39,499 nt of DNA from a virus. Below are positions 4,872-39,499 of the stretch, one piece after another. The DNA lies in UHGV virus genome UHGV-0144131. One strand, given 5' to 3'. A program made the position numbers and the translations under genes. A model generated the notes under the pieces. That model was not told where the DNA came from, made no database searches, and was given only the letters and a program-made list of their open reading frames with translations. Each line of letters starts with the position of its first letter. The first letter of the stretch is position 1.

Positions 4872-5633
4872 TTAAGATGAAGCGTTCGCTATTTGAGCTT
4901 CATTAAATGTGAAACCGGCCTGTTTAAGGCGCTGGATTAAGCGAGGTACAGTTTCTCGAACATGATCATTAAAGTTGAGATAAAGAATACCCGCAGCATC
5001 AGAAGGCTGTTCAAGGTGTTGCTTCTGCAAGATGACCACGTTACTGCGGCCGAGTGATGATAACAACATCCCCATTTCTAGAACTACATTTTGACGAGCC
5101 CTGGGCAGGGCTGCTTCTTGACCGTCTCTTTTGGAGTATCCCACATCATCGGGAGTGAGAAGAACAATGCCGAAACGAGTCGCTGTCTGCCCTTGACCAA
5201 TTTCACGCTCCAGTTCTTCAATTATCGTAAGTCCAGTACCACCTGTATTCTGCAAAATAAAATGATCAGGTAACCCAAGCTTATGAAGAATGAGCTCAAG
5301 CTGCTCTTTTGCTGCATGGTCGTGACCGTGAACGATGAAAATCTTTTTGGCTGGCTCTTGAACCGGGGCTGGCTGAACTCGTTGAGCTGGCGCGTTACCC
5401 AAGTGTTCATTAATAATGGCTTCAACCTCTGGTTTTGCCGCTTGTGAGCCTTGAATCAAAATCGTTCCGGTGTGGTAAAGCGTTATGATGGCACCATTAC
5501 TTAAACGATAACAATCATGACCGGCTTTGTTTTCTTCTCCGGTAACATCAAATCCGGATTCGACTAAAAATTGACGAAAAGTTTCGACAGGGTGTGGGTA
5601 TTTGAGAGCCATTTCATTGAGATCCTGCATCAT
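4872..5633 (-). CDS. TIR-like nucleotide-binding domain protein with an N-terminal domain of unknown function
   Basis: 253 aa. The C-terminal ~150 aa begins KKIFIVHGHDHAAKEQLELILHKLGL...GIVLLTPDD, matching my recollection of the TIR-like family (COG4271/PF10137-type: hydrophobic strand + HG+D, conserved Gly, acidic patch). Tandem ATGATG start with AGGA RBS. Confidence 0.55.
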   Translation of the reverse strand: MMQDLNEMALKYPHPVETFRQFLVESGFDVTGEENKAGHDCYRLSNGAIITLYHTGTILIQGSQAAKPEVEAIINEHLGNAPAQRVQPAPVQEPAKKIFIVHGHDHAAKEQLELILHKLGLPDHFILQNTGGTGLTIIEELEREIGQGQTATRFGIVLLTPDDVGYSKRDGQEAALPRARQNVVLEMGMLLSSLGRSNVVILQKQHLEQPSDAAGILYLNFNDHVRETVPRLIQRLKQAGFTFNEAQIANASS

Positions 5634-5686: not shown

Positions 5687-7762
5687 CTAATCCTTACAGT
5701 AGTGGTACGCCTCAAAACCGCCAGCGTTCAGTGGGATATCGGGCGCCCATTCGGGGTTAGTGGAGAGAAGCGCGGAAAGCACTTTATCGTTGAAATCTTC
5801 TGTGTCAGGTGCTTCGGTGATCACCTCGTCGTGTACCGTCAACACAATGCTGTAACCGGCATCTTCGATAAGCGGCATGTTTCCGGCCAGAACGTCGCGG
5901 GCGGCCGCCTGGGTGACGTTCTCCACCAGCTTTCCGCCGTAGGTTTTGAGTCGTTGCCATTTACGCGAATAAGAGTTAACACCCATATAGGTGATATTCC
6001 CTTTTTCGATAACCGGAGACGGGTAGCATACAGCGCGTCCGGATGGTAGCTGTATGCGCAGCCACGCGCCATCACGTCGGATTTTAAGATAACCGCAATA
6101 CAATGTTTTTTGCGGTGTGGCGATTGCTGTGCGGACAGTGCGCTCCAGCTCGTACCAGAAATCGCAGGTCGCCGGGTGCGCCCTGCGCCACAGGCGCTTG
6201 AGCGAGTCACATGCGATGAATACACGCTCGGAAAGGCCAAAGGTCGACTTACGTTTAACCGATTCGTCGTACCAGCTTTTCGCCTCGCGGATAACATCGC
6301 GGGGAATGTTTGGCAGTGCGGCGTTCGCCAGCTCGTCGAGATCGAGACCGTAAACCAGAGCAAAAGTGATGAAAGCCGATACACCACCTCCATAACCCAG
6401 ACCGAGTTCCATGACTTTACCGATCTGACGCATGTGTTTATCAACATCATCTGGTGCAATATCGAAAGCTTTTGCATACGCCAGTTTATATAAGTCCGGA
6501 CCCGTTCCGGCGTCGTACTCTCTGAATGCATTCAGTTTCCATTCTTCTCCCGCCAGCCATGCCAGCATACGGCCTTCAATGTTTGACAAGTCACTTACCA
6601 CCAGTTTTTTGCCTGTTGGCGCGATAATGCAGCCACGTAACGCTGAACTGGTTAGTTCCATGATATTGTCAAACAGCAGGTCTGCACATCCGGCTTTCAG
6701 TGCTTCGATGCCTTCGTCTATTTGTTCCTGTTTTAGTGAAGGGCGGGGAAGGTTCTGGGGCTGGAATAGCCGTCCGGCCCAACGACCGGTACGTGACGCC
6801 CCGCAGAACTGTAGCGTACCGCGTAAGCGCCCGTCGTGGCTTACGCCTTTCATCAGTGCCTTGTATTTACTGGTGCTGGTAGTACTGGCTTGCAGGCGGA
6901 TAGCCAGCAGTTCTTTCACGGCAGATGGTAAATCGGGGTCGGCAATACGACGTTCCAGAGTACTGCGTTGCATGTCTGGTAGCTCCACACTGTAGGATTC
7001 AACAATGTGCTTAATCAACGCGTCCCGTTGTGTGGCTGCCTGCACTTCGCCATCAGTCATTTCCTGTGTACGCTTTGCCAGGCGCTTTTGCTCCTGGTCT
7101 ACCGCTTCGATCGCAGCGCGCGCGAGTTGCATGTCCATGCAGACGCCCCGGTCGTTGATCTGCTGATCACGATGCCAGAGCGCCAGCTCTGTCCCCTGAT
7201 AATTCCACTTCGGCAGACGTTTATAGACTTCGCGCATTGCCTCGATATCCAGTCCGGCGTAAGCAACAAAGCGCCGCCATTCTTCCGGGTGGGTTTTGCT
7301 GGTGGCACGGCGCAGTTTGCTGTTTTTCGGGCGGGGCTTACAGAACAGCTGGATCAGCGCTTTACCTTCTTTGTCCTTCGCTTTGTCTTGCGGGACGCCG
7401 AGTATTTCGCAGAGTTCCCCCAGAGACCCCGGGAGACCATGCGCCAGCGCCTGTACCATTGTGTCTCGCCAGCGTTTGGCACTACCTGCAACAACACATT
7501 GGGGAGTGTGCAGTAATGCATGGCGCAACATGGTGCGATCGAAATGGCTGTTGTGTGCATATATTAGTACGCTCTCATCGCTGAGAGCTGTCAGTAGTCG
7601 TGTCGGCAAGTTATAGTCTGTGGTTAAATCGTGTACGCTGACGGGGTCTTCGTCGATTGCCCATGCGAATAACATGATTTCGACTCCTTCTGCATAGACA
7701 TGGGTGCCGTTTTTTATTGGGATTTCGCTGAAAGTTTCGAGGTCTAACCAAAGTTTTTGCAT
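5687..7762 (-). CDS. Family-A DNA polymerase with 3'-5' exonuclease domain
   Basis: N-terminus has exo motifs ([16 protein letters not shown]); central and C-terminal parts have Pol A-like motifs ([15 protein letters not shown]). Start set at the ATG at 7762 ([11 protein letters not shown]); the longest ORF begins with TTG at 7804 inside the 7797..7813 hairpin. Confidence 0.85.
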
Positions 7763-7791
7763 CAAGTAAGGACCCGTTGGATTTAATAAAT

Positions 7792-7818
7792 AAAAAGCCG
7801 CCAAAATGGCGGCTTTTT
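7792..7818. terminator. Rho-independent, bidirectional terminator
   Basis: AAAAAGCCGCC-AAAAT-GGCGGCTTTTT: GC stem flanked by an A-run and a T-run, directly after the SIR2-like gene stop and before the polymerase start. Confidence 0.6.
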
Positions 7819-7838
7819 ATAACCGAAGTTAAGAATGC

Positions 7839-9341
7839 TTAATATGATAAATAATCATACAAGCATAAAAGTCGCCTGTATTGGGTATCAATTTTATGCC
7901 CTGGTTTTGTTAAATAATCTCGTAGTTGTTTCAATGAAATAGTATCGTTTAGTACGCAATACATAATCGTGTTAGCAACTTTATACTCTTTCGTTTCTTT
8001 TAGTATTTCATCAATAGACACAGCCTCACTCTTACATGTTTTAATTCGAGAAAGGTTACCAATGATTTTATCTAGCTGCCGTTTTCTGTATGTCTCGGTA
8101 TTTTCTAGTTCAGGGCAGATAGAACTAAAAGCGTATATTGGAAAGTGTTCGCTATTAGCTATGGTTTGCTTATTCAGTAATGCGATAAGCTGAGAGTTTG
8201 CTTCGTCAACTATTTTAAAATAGTTCTGTATCATTTCAGATTTTGTTTGATAAACATATTGTACGGTTCTTTCTGAACCAACAGCAATGACCATTTCATC
8301 ATTGCGAAGTTCATCTAAATTTTCTGTAATTTTAACCTTTATCTCACCACCACTTTTGATGGTACTCCAAACTTTTTGAACCTTTCTTATGTCCATTGCG
8401 GATACTGGCAAAACTAGTCCAGAGATGGCATCATATACAGCTTTGTAATTGTTTGTTTTTATTTTGTTTATTCTTATGATAGACATGCCTTCTATATCTA
8501 TGTCATGCTCCGTAATTTCAGTTGACATGCTGTCTTTTTCGTATTCAACCAAAAGGAAATTATCTTTTATCCTTTTTGCAAGTTCGGTATTTAAGTCAAC
8601 GTATGAGAATATGGTTTTTAATAAGTACTTAATGTTTTTATCGCTAATACTATACCCTATAAATATGATAGGGTTGTGTATGAATATTGAGAGTAATTGA
8701 GCGCGAATTAACTCATATTTATTGTCGAAGTTTGCGTAGTCTTCACCTGTGATAATTATGTTGTTAGGATCACTAACACAGCCATGTATTTTGTAAACTG
8801 AACCGTATGGGTTACTTAAAAGAATGTTGTTACCAATCAGTGGGTTAAATTCGAAGATATTCTCTACGAGTTGGTCGTAGTTTGTTGTAATGATGGAGCC
8901 TATGTTTTTTCTTGTTTTTATTAAGCTGTTTATTTCCTCCATCATTGACTCTTTTATCTTTAGGTCTTTAAGTATTGAAGTTAAATAAATTTTGAATCGA
9001 CTTAGTTTTTTTCCTTTTTTCATGTGCTCATAGAAAACATCATTGATGTCTTTGAACTTACCGTTACGGTCTTCTGCCAGCTTTTTATTAAAAATATCTT
9101 CAAGTTTTGTAGCTAAGATATCATATCGATAGTCGTCACCTTCTAGGCTTTCAGCTTTCAAATCGTAGTAAAACTCAGCATTACCGGTTAGTTCCATTGC
9201 GACACTCAAAAGAAGACCATCCCAGCTAAATGAGTTTTCTAGATACCGTAGGCTAAATCCTGTTCCAATGAATAGAACAGGGTGGTTTTTATAGTGACTT
9301 ACAAACTCTTGGATTTCCATACCGATTCTCAAAGTTGACAC
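7839..9341 (-). CDS. SIR2-like (SIR2_2 / ThsA-like) protein, candidate NAD+-consuming defence effector
   Basis: 500 aa. N-terminal ~280 aa carries motifs I associate with defence-type sirtuin domains: glycine-rich loop FIGTGFS, TTNYD, KIHG, then IFIGYSISD. C-terminal ~200 aa is unassigned. Strongly AT-rich; GTG start at 9341 with AGAGG RBS; own terminator at 7792..7818. Confidence 0.7.
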   Translation of the reverse strand: MSTLRIGMEIQEFVSHYKNHPVLFIGTGFSLRYLENSFSWDGLLLSVAMELTGNAEFYYDLKAESLEGDDYRYDILATKLEDIFNKKLAEDRNGKFKDINDVFYEHMKKGKKLSRFKIYLTSILKDLKIKESMMEEINSLIKTRKNIGSIITTNYDQLVENIFEFNPLIGNNILLSNPYGSVYKIHGCVSDPNNIIITGEDYANFDNKYELIRAQLLSIFIHNPIIFIGYSISDKNIKYLLKTIFSYVDLNTELAKRIKDNFLLVEYEKDSMSTEITEHDIDIEGMSIIRINKIKTNNYKAVYDAISGLVLPVSAMDIRKVQKVWSTIKSGGEIKVKITENLDELRNDEMVIAVGSERTVQYVYQTKSEMIQNYFKIVDEANSQLIALLNKQTIANSEHFPIYAFSSICPELENTETYRKRQLDKIIGNLSRIKTCKSEAVSIDEILKETKEYKVANTIMYCVLNDTISLKQLRDYLTKPGHKIDTQYRRLLCLYDYLSY

Positions 9342-9995: not shown

Positions 9996-11297
9996 TCAGA
10001 TGAGGTCTGCGGTTAGCGTATCGTCGGATACGTCGTCGAAATCATTTACAGGGTTGATATTGAGTGCGGGGCGTGGGTCTGACTCGGGAACGATGGTGGG
10101 TTTACCATCAGCTCGTGTTATCAGTGCCTCGACTTTTGACCAACGGCGCGGACTGGCCTTTTTGATAAGTTTTTCGGCTTTTGTGGGACTAATAAGTTTA
10201 AAGTCGAATACTTCTTCAGTTTTGTACCTGAACTGGTCCTTCAGAAGTGCGCGAGCTGCCTCTTCGTCACTCCAGGCCCGGTTACCTTGTTTTCCTGTTA
10301 CCAGTTTAAACCCCGGTACCGGATGTCCGGCATTGAGTTCATTGTGAACCCGGTCCCGTACTGCCTTTAGCCAGGATTCAATAAAGTCGGCCTGGCTATA
10401 GATCTCTGCAAGCTGCTCAATGGTTAACAGAGGTACACGTGCGCTGGCATTGGTGATTATTTCGCTGACAGGCTTTGTCAGATCTTCAAAATCGCTGGCC
10501 GCTGTTTGTAAATGCTGCATTTTCTGGGCAGTGCAAATAGCTTTTGCTTTACAGAAGCGGCACTGTTTTTCTCCAGGTATGAAGTTTTCCAGTGGTAGTG
10601 TCTCAATGCCTTCGCATTCAGCAATATTGAGAACAAGGATCGCACTGGTTGCGGCCTCCAGCGCCCGTTTACCGAAAGACTGAAGTTCCTGTACGGTTAA
10701 CGACCATTCTGAAACGTGGTTGAGCCTTGGTTGGTGAATAAATAATCTTACAGTTTCAAAGTCATACAGCATGCTGAATTGTTCAAGCGCACCCAGAGCA
10801 TACAGTTGTAGTTGCTCATTTTGTTCTGCATCAATGCGGACGCCTTTGCCATATTTCAGGTCGTGGATTTGTAATTCGTTACCAGCGATGATTATGCCGT
10901 CGGCAGTTCCGAAAGATTCTTCCACACCCGTTATATGTGAGAAATCAACACGTTGTTCAACCAATAGTTCATTATTCTTTGCAAGAGTCCAGACCGTATC
11001 AACATACCGGCCGACGGCTTCGACCATTTCATCATCCACCTGTGGGCCAGATGTATCATCAGGATTTTCGCGAAGGGGGTATGAGCCGAGAAACATAGAA
11101 ACATTGCATCCGGCGTAGTGTTCCGGGTGGCTTTGCCTGTTTCGTAGAACTTTTTCAGCAAGCGCGTGCGCTGCAGTGCCCTCGATTGCAAAAGTTGTTT
11201 CTTTATCCGGTTGTGTGGCCTCCAGCGCCAGACTTCCTGGGCAGCGCATCCATCGATGCGCTGATGATGGAGAAAGTTGTGCATGAACGTCTGGCAT
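9996..11297 (-). CDS. PD-(D/E)xK Cas4/RecB-like nuclease (DUF2800-type)
   Basis: 433 aa. N-terminal [15 protein letters not shown] is a signature I recall for DUF2800; C-terminal Cys cluster ([12 protein letters not shown]) resembles the Fe-S module of Cas4/AddB nucleases. Confidence 0.65.
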
Positions 11298-32989: not shown

Positions 32990-34057
32990 ATGTCACAGAA
33001 CTGGATGAGACATTTCGAGCTGCAGCTTGTGGACGGGAACGGTCAGGGAATTGAGCTAAGTGATTTCAAAGTCACCTTTACGATCGACTGGTTCAACATC
33101 AGCAGCGCGTCCCGGGTAGGGACTATCAAAATTTATAACCTCTCGGCAGATACTGTGAACCGAATCACCGGGCAGGAATTTTCGAAAGTGCGTCTGATTG
33201 CCGGTTACGACGGTATCGCGCCGGAGGTGTCAGCAAGCGACGTAGGGACCGTGCGGGAAGTTGACGCGGCGGACGTGGGCCAGAGAGATGGCCGCAACTA
33301 CGGACTGATTTTCAGCGGTGAAATTCGCTACTCGGTCACAGGAAAAGACAGTCCGGTTGATTCCTACGTCCTGATTCAGGCAGCAGATACTGATCTGGCT
33401 TTTGCCACCAGTATAACCTCACAGACGCTGGCTGCCGGTTACACGGTCGCTGATGTGAACCGTGCGCTGATGAAAGACTTCGAAGCCAAAGGTGCGACCG
33501 AAGGCCTGACGCCTGAAATGCCTGCTACTGTATTCCCCCGGGGGCGGGTGCTCTTTGGCATGACGCGGCATCTAATGGATAACGTAGCCGGGCAATGTGG
33601 CGCAACATGGCAATTCGTGGATGGTCAGCGCCAGATGGTGGTGAATAATGAATATGTTCACGAAGCGATTGTGCTCAACAGCGCTACCGGGCTTATTGGC
33701 ATGCCGCAGCAGACCATCGGCAACGGCGTAAACGTCCGCGCGCTTATTAATCCGAACATCCGGGTTAATGGGCTCATTCAACTGGATCAGGCTTCCGTAT
33801 ATCGCACCGCGTTGTCGAACAACGATATCGCTATGGCTGGTGGGCAGATCACCGACCAGAACACGGACGGAAATATTACGCTAAGCGGCACCATATCGCA
33901 GCCTGCCAGCATCGCAACGGATGGCGTTTATATTGTGCGCGGGATTATGTACACTGGCGACACAAGGGGCCAGGCGTGGTACATGGATATGATGTGCGAA
34001 GCGCGCGGTGCGGCGGATCTTCGTTCGGCGTCGTCTTTACAGCGTGAGGTAGGATAG
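32990..34057 (+). CDS. Putative baseplate hub protein
   Basis: 355 aa between tape measure and baseplate V/W/J; assigned by position and size. Confidence 0.45.
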   Translation: MSQNWMRHFELQLVDGNGQGIELSDFKVTFTIDWFNISSASRVGTIKIYNLSADTVNRITGQEFSKVRLIAGYDGIAPEVSASDVGTVREVDAADVGQRDGRNYGLIFSGEIRYSVTGKDSPVDSYVLIQAADTDLAFATSITSQTLAAGYTVADVNRALMKDFEAKGATEGLTPEMPATVFPRGRVLFGMTRHLMDNVAGQCGATWQFVDGQRQMVVNNEYVHEAIVLNSATGLIGMPQQTIGNGVNVRALINPNIRVNGLIQLDQASVYRTALSNNDIAMAGGQITDQNTDGNITLSGTISQPASIATDGVYIVRGIMYTGDTRGQAWYMDMMCEARGAADLRSASSLQREVG

Positions 34058-34410
34058 TGAAAAAGTGGATTGTTATTGGACTCTGTTTCCTTCCGGGGTT
34101 CGCATTTGCTGCGAATCCTGGCGGTGTCACGCTTCAGTGTGGTGGCTACAAATTAGAGTTGATTCCTGATTCATTGTTCAGGATTAATGGTGAGACAGTT
34201 ACCTCCCAGAAAATCAAAACGCTCGGCAACGGTAATGGAATGAAGGCGGATATGGGGCTTATGCCAGCCAAAGACGGTAACAATTACGGTTTCGAGTTCA
34301 TTCGCCGTCCGGGTACCGAAACGCGTTTCTTGAATGTCCAACTACTGCAGAACAGCATGGATGCGCCGAGAATCATAGGTTCGTTTCCTTGTAAGAAGGT
34401 TGACGATTAA
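34057..34410 (+). CDS. Small secreted (periplasmic) protein, accessory gene in the tail module
   Basis: 117 aa with a signal peptide (MKKWIVIGLCFLPGFAFA, AxA cleavage motif); GTG start; no resemblance to tail components. Confidence 0.5.
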   Translation: MKKWIVIGLCFLPGFAFAANPGGVTLQCGGYKLELIPDSLFRINGETVTSQKIKTLGNGNGMKADMGLMPAKDGNNYGFEFIRRPGTETRFLNVQLLQNSMDAPRIIGSFPCKKVDD

Positions 34411-34416
34411 TACAAT

Positions 34417-34947
34417 ATGTGCAATCAAAGGAATGAGGCTGTTGGCCTTGAAGTAGATACGATTTTGTCGTACTCGAGAGACAGGTATGAAGAAGTTAAG
34501 ACAACATACAGGCGGTTAGAGGACAAAGCTAATTTTCTTCTTGCTGTGCTTGGTGTTGAGATTTCTGCATTATTAGCCGTTTTTGGGTCCTTTGAGCTGG
34601 GACAACAGTTAAAGACTAGTCTATCCGCAAGATTGTCTCTATTGTGTCTATGTTCATGTTTTGTATGTTTGGTTTTTTGTTTTTATTATTTATGGAAATG
34701 TTGGGAACTTAGAAATATTCCCAAAATGCCTGTGCATCGAACACCTGAACAACATGAATTTCTTCTGAGGGGTAGTAGAGATGACACAGTCAGATTTCAT
34801 TTGATAATGTATGGTAGGGCTATTGATAGAATCGAGAAAATCCATAAAGAAAAATCAGCGTTTGTAAATGAGTTGTTTCGATGGATGGTTATGTCATTTG
34901 TATTTTTTATTATTTCTGTAACGTGCATGTTAATAAGTAAGGTTTGA
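34417..34947 (+). CDS. AT-rich two-helix membrane protein, accessory gene in the tail module
   Basis: 176 aa with hydrophobic helices (FLLAVLGVEISALLAVFG, LSLLCLCSCFVCLVFCFYYLW, WMVMSFVFFIISVTCMLI) and a charged N-terminal helix; visibly lower G+C than the flanking tail genes. Confidence 0.6.
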   Translation: MCNQRNEAVGLEVDTILSYSRDRYEEVKTTYRRLEDKANFLLAVLGVEISALLAVFGSFELGQQLKTSLSARLSLLCLCSCFVCLVFCFYYLWKCWELRNIPKMPVHRTPEQHEFLLRGSRDDTVRFHLIMYGRAIDRIEKIHKEKSAFVNELFRWMVMSFVFFIISVTCMLISKV

Positions 34948-34949
34948 AT

Positions 34950-35123
34950 ATGTCCTGTCCAGAAGACCAAAATGAACCACAACCTAAACCAAGTGAGCCT
35001 GAGGTCTCTTTCCTAGATAACTATGAGCAAGAGATTATGGCTAGAGTACCTTTCGGGGATATCGAAATTATGACGGAAAGCTATCACGACAAGCCTTCAA
35101 CTTTTCCCAAGAAAGATAGTTAG
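34950..35123 (+). CDS. Small acidic hypothetical protein
   Basis: 57-codon hand-translated ORF (MSCPEDQNEPQPKPSEPEVSFLDNYEQEIMARVPFGDIEIMTESYHDKPSTFPKKDS) starting 3 nt after the membrane-protein stop. Confidence 0.3.
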   Translation: MSCPEDQNEPQPKPSEPEVSFLDNYEQEIMARVPFGDIEIMTESYHDKPSTFPKKDS

Positions 35124-36290: not shown

Positions 36291-37489
36291 TGGCTCTGAA
36301 CCTTGATTCTCTCGGTTTATCTGCAAAGGTAACCGCGGAGGGGATCAGTGCGCCTGATTATCAGACGATACTCAGCACCCTGATTAGCTATTTTCAGCAG
36401 ATTTATGGTAGTGATGCCTACCTCGAACCGGATAGTAAAGACGGCCAGATGGTGGCTCTGATGGCGCTGGCGATTCATGATGCCAATAATACTGCGATAA
36501 CTGTCTACAACTGTTTTTCACCGGCAACCGGCTATGGGGCCGCACTGACCAGTAACGTGAAAATAAATGGTATTTCACGTAAAGGCGCGACGAATTCTAC
36601 GGTTGATTTGCTTCTTACAGGAACTGCCGGAACAACCATCATTAATGGCAGCGTGAAAGACAGTAATAATGTGATATGGCGTTTGCCTGCTTCAGTGGTG
36701 GTCGGCGTGGATGGTACAGTGATGGTGACCGCAACATGTTCCGTCAGTGGTGCAGTGGCGGCGCTGGCTGGAACTATCACTGAAATTAATACGCCAACCC
36801 GTGGCTGGGTTTCGGTAACTAATCCTGCTGCGGCTACTGTAGGCACTCCGGCAGAAACTGACGCTGAGTTACGTATCCGCCAGTCGCAAAGTGTTGCGTT
36901 GCCATCAATAACCCCATTTGAAGCACTGGATGGTGCTGTTTCTAATGTTACCGGTGTAACCCGCCACAAACTCTATGAAAACGATAATGGTTCGGAGGAC
37001 GGTAACGGGTTACCGCCACACTCTGTTGCTGTAATTGTGGATGGCGGTGATGTGACGGATATTGCTCAGGCTATCAGAGGGAATAAAGGCCAGGGAACAG
37101 CCACTCACGGTACAACATCCGTTACGGTTCCGGATAAATACGGCAATCCCCATGTAATCAAATTTTCGCGTTCCAGTGATGTGCCTGTTTATGCCCGGAT
37201 TAAATTAAAAGTTTTTACGGGTTATACCTCACAGATAGGGCAGCAGATCCAGCAGGCTATTTCCGACTATATCAATAGTCTGATGATTGGTGATTCGGTC
37301 CTTTTAAGTCGCATTTACTCACCGGCGAATCTTGGCGTGGTGAGTGGCGGGAATGCACGCTATTACGATATTCAGGAACTGACGATTGGGAAATCCCCGG
37401 GGGCTTTGTCGTCATCAAACATTGATATCAGATACAACGAATCTGCGTCCTGTACCCCGGAAAATATCGTTATAACGGTGGAGTCATGA
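36290..37489 (+). CDS. Baseplate J-like protein
   Basis: 399 aa following W; TAATG-coupled. Confidence 0.75.
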   Translation: MALNLDSLGLSAKVTAEGISAPDYQTILSTLISYFQQIYGSDAYLEPDSKDGQMVALMALAIHDANNTAITVYNCFSPATGYGAALTSNVKINGISRKGATNSTVDLLLTGTAGTTIINGSVKDSNNVIWRLPASVVVGVDGTVMVTATCSVSGAVAALAGTITEINTPTRGWVSVTNPAAATVGTPAETDAELRIRQSQSVALPSITPFEALDGAVSNVTGVTRHKLYENDNGSEDGNGLPPHSVAVIVDGGDVTDIAQAIRGNKGQGTATHGTTSVTVPDKYGNPHVIKFSRSSDVPVYARIKLKVFTGYTSQIGQQIQQAISDYINSLMIGDSVLLSRIYSPANLGVVSGGNARYYDIQELTIGKSPGALSSSNIDIRYNESASCTPENIVITVES

Positions 37490-38166
37490 GCAAATACACC
37501 GAACTAATCACGAACTACCACGCCACCAAACCTAAATTTCTTGCACATGTTGATCTGATGACCCGGCCGCTTATTGATGTTGCGGCTGCCACCAGAGGGC
37601 TGATTACTGCATTTGATATTGACTCTGCGGTTGGTGTGCAACTTGACATTCTGGGATTGTGGATCGGACGTAGCCGTGTTGTCAGCCAGCCTATTTCAGG
37701 TGTCTATTTCAGCTGGGATACCGACGGGCTTGGATATGATCAGGGTGTATGGCAGGGGCCATACGATCCTGATTCCGGATACATGTACCTCAGCGATGAA
37801 ACTTATCGTGTCATCCTTAAAGCGAAGATTGCGATTAATAACTGGGACGGACGGAATGATTCGCTTCCGGCAATTCTTGACGCGGCAACAGCAGGATCCG
37901 GACTGCGAATGCAGATAGTCGATAACCAGGACATGACGATATCGGTCTGGGTCTTTCCTGATACTGATATTTCAGATGTATCGCGTGAGTTAATTGCGGC
38001 AATTAAACAGGGGTATCTCACAGTAAAAGCCGCCGGGGTATGGGCGGGTGGCATTGAAACACCTTCGGTGGAAACCCCATCGGAAGGCTCAAAATTTTTT
38101 GGTTTTGATATGGATAACGAATTCATCAGTGGTTTTGATGTAGGAGCATGGGGAGTATTACTCTGA
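37486..38166 (+). CDS. Tail protein I-like (DUF2612-like)
   Basis: 226 aa following J, as in the P2/Mu-type order V-W-J-I-fibre. Confidence 0.6.
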
Positions 38167-38855
38167 TGGCGAAAAATGACTTTAAAGCGTTTGCAACGGA
38201 TCGAAATGCCAATGTTATATCGCAGGAGGAATGGGAAGCGTTGCCCGCGCTTTTATCTGGATTTACAGCAGGGAAAGCCTCCAGTGCGCAAGTCAATAAG
38301 GTTATTCGGCAGGCCAGCTTTATTGCTGCAGCTCTGGCCCAGTTTGTAAGTGATAAAACGCAACGGGATGTGCTTGATAATGGTGATCTGCCCGGTTTTG
38401 TTGAATTGCTGGGATCGGGGTTTGCTGTTGAATACCTGAGCCGCAAGAATCCGTTTGGCGATATCAAATCGGATGGCACGGTGAAAACGGCTCTCGAAAA
38501 CCTTGGTTTGGGAGAAGCGGCTAAAAGGAATGTAGGGACAGGGGCGAATCAGATACCTGATATGGGTAGCTTCACGCTTTCTGTTTCAGGTACTGGATAT
38601 CAAAAATTACCATCAGGTTTTATTCTTCAGTGGGGCTCAATCGGCGCACCAGGCATTGCACAGGATGTAGTAACCCATTTCCCGATTGCATTTCCAAACA
38701 GATGTCTGCGTGTTTTGGTCTCACAAGACTACACACCAGATAGCGGGGCTGTTGGTTATATTGCCTGTGCAGGTTTTAGTCCCGACCCAGTTAAATTTAT
38801 ATCCAGAGCCAGTACTCCTGGCCTCGGCGCTTCATTTTTAGCGTTAGGCTGTTAA
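38166..38855 (+). CDS. Tail fibre protein containing an invertase crossover site
   Basis: Start at [12 protein letters not shown] (38166, TGATG-coupled; longest ORF from 38148). Contains the hix/gix-like site at 38491..38516 and is followed by a tail-fibre-assembly gene. Confidence 0.7.
38491..38516. promoter_or_regulatory. Hin/Gin/Cin/Pin-family DNA invertase crossover site
   Basis: CTCTCGAAAACC-TT-GGTTTGGGAGAA: 12-2-12 imperfect palindrome; its reverse complement matches hixL as I recall it (TTCTTGAAAACCAAGGTTTTTGATAA) at 20 of 26 positions. Confidence 0.55.
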
Positions 38856-38876
38856 TTTAGCTATATGGAGTGAAAA

Positions 38877-39317
38877 ATGAATTACATATATTCCGCGACT
38901 ACAAACTCTTTCTATCCGCTGGAGATGAAAGAGGATTACACTCAAGCTGACTCATGGCCAGATGATGCTGTTGAAGTTGATGAGCAAGTGTATATTGAGT
39001 TTTCCGGATTACCGCCGAAAGGAAAAATCCGTATCGCTGGAGAAAATGGTTTTCCTGCATGGTCTGAAATTCCACCACCAACACATGAGGAACAGATTGC
39101 TGCAGCCGAACTGGAAAAGCAGCAACTGATTAATCAGGCCAACGATTATATGAACAGTAAACAATGGCCTGGTAAAGCGGCTATTGGTCGTCTGAAAGGT
39201 GAGGAACTGGCGCAATATAATTTGTGGCTGGATTATCTGGACGCACTGGAACTGGTCGATACTTCCGGTGCGCCAGATATTGAATGGCCTACGCCTCCGG
39301 CAGTTCAGGCCAGATGA
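38877..39317 (+). CDS. Tail fibre assembly protein (Tfa)
   Basis: 146 aa starting MNYIYSATTNSFYP and ending ...DTSGAPDIEWPTPPAV, both typical of enterobacterial Tfa chaperones. Confidence 0.8.
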   Translation: MNYIYSATTNSFYPLEMKEDYTQADSWPDDAVEVDEQVYIEFSGLPPKGKIRIAGENGFPAWSEIPPPTHEEQIAAAELEKQQLINQANDYMNSKQWPGKAAIGRLKGEELAQYNLWLDYLDALELVDTSGAPDIEWPTPPAVQAR

Positions 39318-39499
39318 CGTCCGGCGCTGTGCTGGTATCTGTTGCCGTCACCGCGTCAATGTAATCCAGCACAGCGTTAAGTCGGGTGTTTTCTGGCTGC
39401 GTCAGCTTCCGCCCAGCCTGTAATTTCAGTTGAATCAGACTGATGGAAGCCATTGCAGCATCAATCAGCGACTGGCGCTGTGCTTCTGCCGCTTCTACT
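39289..39499 (-). CDS. Second tail fibre assembly gene, inverted orientation, 3' part only
   Basis: Hand-translation of the - strand gives ...LKLQAGRKLTQPENTRLNAVLDYIDAVTATDTSTAPDVIWPELPEA*, a Tfa-type C-terminus; its 3' end overlaps the + strand Tfa by about 29 nt. Continues beyond the window. Confidence 0.65.
   Translation of the reverse strand, partial: VEAAEAQRQSLIDAAMASISLIQLKLQAGRKLTQPENTRLNAVLDYIDAVTATDTSTAPDVIWPELPEA

Follow-up and report, generated by a model that had tools for sequence, protein, structure and literature searches.

A probable Pin-type inversion switch in the tail-fibre module of a temperate myovirus-like Escherichia coli prophage

The best-matching described counterpart of the locus reported here is the Pin-inverted P segment of e14, a defective prophage of Escherichia coli K-12 (Plasterk and van de Putte 1985, as cited in PMC4272514). 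The genes of the e14 module are ordered stfP-tfaP-tfaE-stfE-pinE, and the boundaries of the segment have been placed at the repeats TTGGTTTGGGAGAAGG/CCTTCTCCCAAACCAA (Kirigo et al. 2025, PMC12529663). Both orientations between the e14 sites coexist in clonal cultures (PMC4272514). Inversion reaches about 30% in the wild type and rises when PinE or PinQ is overproduced; the inversion driven by either enzyme runs between the TTGGTTTGGGAGAAGG repeats, and in K-12 strains mutated in pinE, or in both pinE and pinQ, the segment stays in a single orientation (PMC12529663). Other well-described members of the group are Hin/hix of Salmonella flagellar phase variation, Cin/cix of the P1 C segment and Min/mix of plasmid p15B, which have in common with the present locus the recombinase family, the 26-bp sites of 12-2-12 form and an AA/TT core. 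However, Hin flips a promoter and not a coding cassette, and Min acts on six sites and multiple segments, whereas two sites are present here. The Gin/G segment of phage Mu (S-U / S'-U') resembles our locus in its crossover within the fibre gene, its two convergent cassettes of fibre C-terminus plus chaperone and its invertase gene just outside the segment, and the catalytic and Fis-contact residues of Gin are also those found here. In contrast, the gix sites agree with ours at only 17–18 of 26 positions and have a GA/TC core instead of TT/AA, and the G segment is about 3 kb long, serves much longer fibres and sits in an unrelated phage backbone.

We analysed a stretch of 39,499 nucleotides (UHGV virus genome UHGV-0144131), called the window below. 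The tail-fibre genes at its end, which belong to a temperate E. coli prophage of myovirus-like type, very probably include a Pin-type inversion switch (Din family: Hin/Gin/Cin/Pin) that would alternate receptor specificity. The switch itself is the known Pin/P-segment system; what is different is the carrier prophage and the fibre and Tfa cargo. A first-pass annotation, made from the letters of the window, had read the region as an invertible tail-fibre locus, and the present analysis supports that reading. The features within the window are the following.

37486–38166, plus strand: baseplate wedge gene, DUF2612 / Phage_Wedge1 (Pfam PF11041, E 3.8e-47; RefSeq annotation of the identical sequence)
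38166–38855, plus strand: tail-fibre gene, form A, 229 aa (open reading frame; RefSeq 'gp53-like domain-containing protein')
38166–38502, plus strand: constant N-terminal part of the fibre, unmoved by inversion (in-silico inversion and translation)
38491–38516, no strand: crossover site pixL, 12-2-12, encoding (A)LENLGLGE (26/26 to published pixL; inversion breakpoints of relatives inside it)
38503–38504, no strand: core dinucleotide TT, in codon 113 of the fibre coding sequence (matched by inverted pixR)
38503–39499, no strand: stretch of the invertible segment inside the window (core-to-core mapping with assembly L001, see below)
38505–38855, plus strand: variable C-terminal cassette A of the fibre (departs from form B at residue 118; Gp53-like_C)
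38877–39317, plus strand: TfaA, tail-fibre assembly chaperone of 146 aa, cognate to cassette A (Caudo_TAP, E 8e-38)
39289–39499, minus strand: 3' end of TfaB, last 70 codons of a convergent chaperone gene (Caudo_TAP, E 1e-27)

The 26-mer at 38491–38516, CTCTCGAAAACCTTGGTTTGGGAGAA, has the form typical of Din-family sites, namely two imperfect inverted half-sites of 12 bp around a 2-bp core, and differs at one position from the degenerate Hin/Gin-type 12-2-12 consensus TTNTCNNAAACCNNGGTTTNNGANAA. With up to three mismatches allowed, it is the single match to this consensus in the 39.5-kb window; the chance rate is 0.04 matches per window, one match being found in 4 of 100 shuffled sequences. 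Comparison with the reference site sequences of the Din family (PMC3241671, Table 3) showed that the reverse complement of the 26-mer is the published pixL (26/26), and it is also identical to the site in the e14 region of K-12 MG1655. The other sites are more distant: mix 21/26 (mixQ''R'), hixL 20/26, cixL and cixR 20/26 each, and gix 18/26. The first-pass annotation had called the site hix/gix-like on the strength of 20 matching positions. That count was reproduced against the published hixL and the assignment to the Din-family crossover sites stands; the label is refined, as the site is base for base the published pixL of e14 Pin, which makes this a known system. The site had been placed about 108 codons into the fibre gene, and it indeed begins at the second base of codon 109 (coding sequence starting at 38166). 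By its position, the core TT at 38503–38504 would be where the staggered cut and the strand exchange take place.

The genes around pixL are arranged as in a fibre module. The wedge gene lies directly upstream of the fibre gene, its stop codon overlapping the fibre start (TGATG), and the C-terminal part of fibre A, residues 147–229, is a Gp53-like_C domain (Pfam, E 6e-15). Cassette A is presumed to be the receptor-binding part of the fibre. Both chaperone genes named by the first-pass annotation, one downstream of the fibre gene and the 3' end of a second in convergent orientation, encode Caudo_TAP proteins (38877–39317 on the plus strand and 39289–39499 on the minus strand), and the 3' ends of TfaA and TfaB overlap by 29 bp.

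The remainder of the module lies past the end of the window and was placed from E. coli assemblies. Assembly L001 (E. coli 23CRST009) is 100% identical to the final 3.5 kb of the window and 99.97% identical to it overall, with an extra IS1; the last 6,334 bp of the window align with assembly L015 (GCA_012061005.1) with 0 mismatches. Judging from these assemblies, identical over 3.5 to 6.3 kb, pixR and pin most probably follow the window in its own genome as well. The positions in L001 are as follows.

L001 11290–11883, minus strand: TfaB in full, 197 aa (assembly identical to the window end)
L001 12402–12427, inverted relative to pixL: pixR, the second 26-mer, TTCTCCCAAACCAACGTTTATGAAAA (26/26 to published pixR; also identical to the K-12 MG1655 e14-region site)
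L001 from 12452, minus strand: leader open reading frame of 189 aa in form A, with the layout MPFARYFCIFIN-VGLGE-cassette (divergent from pin, its ATG and that of pin 29 bp apart)

TfaB is followed, on the minus strand, by a fibre C-terminal cassette (cassette B), which RefSeq describes as 'phage tail protein, incomplete, missing N-terminus'. The core of pixR reads AA on the plus strand and TT once aligned in inverted orientation, the same core as that of pixL. The second inverted site predicted downstream is therefore this pixR, about 1.9 kb away with the same core dinucleotide; it is also present in L015. The two sites form the arms of a 25-nt inverted repeat separated by 1,872 nt, they contain the repeats TTGGTTTGGGAGAAGG/CCTTCTCCCAAACCAA, and two consensus matches occurred in none of 200 shuffles of L001. 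From core to core the whole segment measures 1,912 bp (L001 10504–12415), its end corresponding to virtual window position 40414. The predicted invertase gene was likewise found past the window: 54 bp beyond pixR lies an intact 184-aa serine invertase gene, annotated pinE. The eight independent assemblies examined that encode the exact fibre-A protein all carry pixL at 26/26 and pixR at 25–26/26. A multi-site Min-like shufflon was considered and rejected, since a scan of 19.5 kb that allowed three mismatches showed just two sites.

The likeness to e14 is close in several respects: both pix sites match at 26/26, the invertase is 95.7% identical, and the order is the same, with fibre N-terminus, pixL, C-terminal cassette plus Tfa, convergent Tfa plus C-terminal cassette, pixR and pin. 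The 29-bp overlap of the tfa 3' ends and a short-leader open reading frame on the pin side are also common to both. In contrast, the StfP N-terminus is unrelated to that of our fibre, the alignment starting only at residue 92, and the cargo has diverged at the amino acid level (37% identity for fibre A/StfP, 60% for TfaA/TfaP, 63% for TfaB/TfaE and 43% for cassette B/StfE). The segment is 1,912 bp long here versus 1,797 bp in e14, and the DUF2612 wedge protein has YmfQ (DUF2313) as its counterpart in e14. We also considered whether the carrier might be e14 itself, a defective lambdoid element that occupies the icd site (ymfQ-...-pinE-mcrA). This was rejected: the prophage lies between yfhL and yfhH, has another baseplate family, is without mcrA and carries cargo of 37–63% identity.

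Inversion of the segment in silico at both cores fused the fixed N-terminus in frame to cassette B, giving a 289-aa fibre (form B) with TfaB directly downstream. The pixL-side junction reads ...GGTTTGGGAGAAGCGGCTAAAAGG in form A and is predicted to read ...GGTTTGGGAGAAGGTGCTCCAGCT in form B. Translation showed that residues 1–117 are common to the two forms; the shared stretch extends to residue 117 since GLGE is encoded by the right half-site in either form. The crossover thus lies inside the fibre open reading frame, there are two in-frame C-termini and each has its own Tfa, as in the Mu G, P1 C and e14 P modules. The likeness to these modules had been proposed from gene order, and the in-frame alternative fibres and the two Caudo_TAP genes bear it out.

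Both orientations were found in E. coli genomes. Complete genomes covering at least 80% of the module in one place comprised 12 in the A form and 10 in the B form. The two sublines of BH100 are A and BH100N is B; RIVM_C036204 and C040753 are A, and RIVM_C029670 and C040348 are B at a common chromosomal position. The 6,966-bp regions of BH100 and BH100N are identical except for a perfect 1,816-bp reverse complement, and the same holds for RIVM_C036204 and RIVM_C029670. In these relatives, pixL has C and pixR has G at position 12 of the 26-mer, and this difference is unaffected by the flip; the G/A difference at position 25, in contrast, travels with the segment. The exchange therefore fell within the 12 bp that hold the core. 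The cargo of the window itself, at 99.2% identity, is present in 09A19CPO009, which gives a single gap-free colinear match to the in-silico flipped form, whereas its alignment with the A form falls into three pieces broken at the repeats. Inversion had been predicted from the window; near-identical strains that differ in orientation and break within the 26-bp sites agree with that prediction. By extension from these relatives, the segment would also switch in the window's own strain.

In a different explanation, the likeness of the site is a by-product of encoding the fibre peptide ALENLGLGE and the inversions in relatives arise through general homologous recombination between short inverted repeats. 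In its favour, pixL does lie in coding sequence and its motif is common to StfP. However, the shared inverted repeat is only about 20 bp long, too short for efficient RecA recombination. Furthermore, (i) the left arm of pixR is outside any fibre domain and is nevertheless part of a 12-2-12 site, (ii) both sites match experimentally defined pix sites at 26/26 and adjoin the Pin gene, and (iii) the K-12 pinE and pinE pinQ mutants are locked (PMC12529663). On the structure of the sites, the shortness of the repeat and the e14 genetics, this explanation was rejected, and we grant it next to no probability.

The invertase has the features of a Din-family enzyme, a class of small serine recombinases of about 185–190 aa with the active-site serine near the N-terminus and an HTH at the C-terminus. 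Pin has a Resolvase domain (PF00239, E 9e-52) and an HTH_7 domain (PF02796, E 4e-14), is 95.7% identical to K-12 PinE and 77% identical to Mu Gin at the protein level, and aligns end to end over residues 1–181 with the Gin structures 3UJ3 and 4M6F (E 1e-93). The catalytic Ser9 sits within MLIGYVRVSTNDQ and its context is kept. Aligned with Gin, Pin also keeps the basic helix-B residues K46/K47/R50 and the motif Q150-x-x-R-L (Q150-A-G-R-L), which we take to be K47/R48/K51 and Q151/R154/L155 in the numbering of the Fis/enhancer-contact residues of Hin. Such residues are uniquely conserved in Fis/enhancer-dependent invertases (McLean et al. 2013, PMC3798978).

The enhancer was sought in the 5' part of pin. 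The pin and gin genes share G-N13-C 15-mers centred at nucleotides 29 and 78 of pin, 49 bp apart; the two Fis sites of an enhancer are spaced by 48 bp. With a strict Fis-like pattern, one match was common to pin and gin, at nucleotide 78, and the third-codon-position identity between the two genes in 15-codon bins had no clear peak (11/15 in bin 1 and 4/15 in bin 2). A scan for sigma-70 promoters and terminators covering the whole module returned 5 promoter-like sites versus 5.1 expected, none of them upstream of pin.

These results would suit a frozen relic, in which the Pin sites and the cassettes were inherited and the segment is fixed here, through a silent pin or faulty enhancer/Fis contacts, with only fibre A being made. 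The promoter scan is at chance level for pin, the enhancer search yielded candidates without a confirmed element, and five of the eight assemblies with an identical fibre-A protein have a shortened pin of 58 or 104 aa, a fused one of 234 aa or none called, pin being broken in 09A19CPO009 as well. This decay in 5/8 relatives indicates that the switch is easily lost. However, pin is full length in L001, L011 and L015, which are identical to the window end, with all checked catalytic and Fis-contact residues kept; the sites match functional pix sites at 26/26; the segment has flipped recently in relatives whose pin is nearly identical; and other Pin paralogues are able to act in trans (PMC12529663). 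We therefore regard a fixed segment as very unlikely and retain a working Pin-type switch as the preferred reading.

The following mechanism is proposed for this switch, its cleavage chemistry and Fis dependence being carried over from studies of Hin and Gin. The late operon would be read through the baseplate genes into the fibre gene, of which the first ~113 codons are fixed. The two sites pixL and pixR enclose two convergent cassettes, in each of which a fibre C-terminus is paired with a Tfa chaperone of its own. Pin dimers on pixL and pixR would synapse and, as for Hin and Gin, an enhancer bound by Fis within the 5' end of pin would assemble the invertasome. Ser9 would then cleave at the central TT through a phosphoserine link with a 2-nt stagger, and a 180-degree rotation of subunits followed by religation would leave the segment inverted. 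The N-terminus would thereby be joined either to the 112-aa Gp53-like C-terminus (A, 229 aa) or to the 172-aa alternative (B, 289 aa), the matching chaperone being brought downstream of the fibre in each orientation. A population of lysogens would release virions of two receptor specificities; after the example of Mu G and P1 C, the two fibres probably confer different host ranges.

The leader open reading frame on the pin side raises the question of whether host range is the main selected role. It is laid out as K-12 stfE, with a 12-aa leader that is nearly the same, and gene callers annotated 189-aa leader open reading frames in several assemblies, e.g. L011, L013, L015 and L016. In e14, the chimera StfE2 is reported to block T2 adsorption and to cause T2 exclusion (PMC12529663). 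The main role could accordingly be bacterial defence, the off-side cassette acting as a free receptor-binding protein that blocks the adsorption of other phages, but we consider this unlikely. Genes for integrase, terminase, head, sheath, baseplate and lysis are all there and the prophage appears complete, so that the classical host-range role has a working virion to act on. In addition, most of the leader overlaps pixR and its conservation is therefore not independent evidence, and the sigma-70 scan of the module detected no promoter above chance. Defence and host-range roles are not exclusive. As a tentative proposal to which we attach a low probability, the cassette that is 'off' for the virion may be produced, with expression from between pixR and pin, as a fusion to the 12-aa leader and shield the lysogen from other phages as a free receptor-binding protein. 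If this were the case, the switch would toggle host range and superinfection exclusion together and, with PinQ-like paralogues flipping the segment in trans, it could explain the perfect pix sites of relatives in which pin has decayed.

For the preferred reading, that of a Pin-type switch between two virion fibres, the carrier is of some practical interest. It is a myovirus-like prophage of about 42 kb, flanked by yfhL and yfhH; a tyrosine integrase lies at its left end, and the modules for replication, lysis, terminase, head, sheath and baseplate all appear complete. The e14-type Pin switch is thus carried by a prophage that looks complete, unlike the defective e14, and this prophage family would be a convenient natural system for studying the host-range role of P-type cassettes and the defence claim for the off-side chimera. 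What RefSeq lists in this family as an incomplete fibre pseudogene is most probably no pseudogene but the second cassette of a functional switch. Strains that look different at the locus may differ only in switch state. Beyond correct annotation, the finding matters little.

Some variation at the locus was seen outside the pairs of near-identical strains. In the GenBank phages vB_EcoM-606R2, -611R5 and -683R1, which belong to this family, homology to the window is lost at 38517 and picks up again at another place in the record; a flipped segment or a different cassette would give this pattern. It has long been held that horizontal exchange, too, has its boundaries at sites of this type (Sandmeier 1994, as cited in PMC3241671), and the cassette variation among the fibre-A relatives fits that view. 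Some of these relatives carry a Collar-domain cassette of 171–172 aa together with a 200-aa Tfa.

The cassette that faces away from the tail-fibre gene carries an open reading frame of its own, located here both on L001, the E. coli 23CRST009 locus, and in window numbering continued past the window end by means of that locus:

L001 11883-12452 (virtual window 39882-40451), minus strand: away-facing cassette ORF, 189 aa, with its own ATG

This ORF opens with a 12-aa leader, MPFARYFCIFIN, and is divergent from the serine-invertase gene pin, from which it is separated by a 29-bp spacer. Together, ORF and leader mirror the layout of stfE (MPFACYFFIFIN), the fibre-cassette gene of the K-12 e14 switch. 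RefSeq annotates the away-facing cassette as a pseudogene in form A, the orientation found in the window; in strains with form B, it is called a CDS. The cassette is not promoterless-looking junk. The likeness to e14 extends to the chaperone genes: the TfaA and TfaB genes are convergent and their 3' ends overlap by 29 bp (window 39289-39317), exactly as do those of e14 tfaP and tfaE. The conserved C-termini of both Tfa proteins give rise to an 18-nt inverted repeat within the tfa genes (L001 11228-11245 and 11354-11371), which is not a recombination site.

In five GenBank phage or prophage records (H21-H24 and H27), the constant region is matched up to window 38517, or the match begins at 38497, so that homology to database records stops precisely at pixL, the crossover site inside the fibre gene. 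The break in these records reflects either the opposite switch state or swapped cassettes.

Among relatives with perfect pix sites, pin is often decayed, being truncated to 58 or 104 aa, fused into a 234-aa product or without a call:

L012-L014, L016 and L017, at about 7240-8020: decayed pin
L010, 5982-6686: decayed pin

In 09A19CPO009, whose prophage is located near torT, pin is kept only over its first ~106 nt, beyond which a gene for an 'XF1762 family protein' takes its place. Loci with a decayed pin may be frozen, or other Pin paralogues may flip them in trans.

Gene content also varies next to the spike gene:

34057-35123: slot flanked by the baseplate genes and the spike gene, partly without RefSeq annotation
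34417-34947, plus strand: predicted membrane ORF within the slot, 176 aa, with weak PycTM-like matches (E 2.6e-4) and no Pfam match

The slot is occupied by other genes in relatives L012-L014, L017 and L018 and so has the appearance of a variable moron site.

A TIR gene and a SIR2_2 gene, with a polymerase gene between them, both lie in the prophage early region:

4872-5633, minus strand: TIR protein, 253 aa (PADLOC candidate system PDC-S35, E 1.7e-109; Pfam CAP12-PCTIR_TIR)
5687-7804, minus strand: family-A DNA polymerase gene
7839-9341, minus strand: SIR2_2 protein, 500 aa (PDC-S25, E 4e-158; weaker ThsA-like matches also)

The TIR and SIR2_2 genes are likely to be anti-phage defence cargo borne by the prophage. 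In strain 23CRST009, the SIR2-family gene has an IS1 inserted at its 5' end (window ~9180; 10408-11177 of comparison locus L007); this IS1 is absent from the window, which is 99.97% identical to 23CRST009 and thus stems from another strain.
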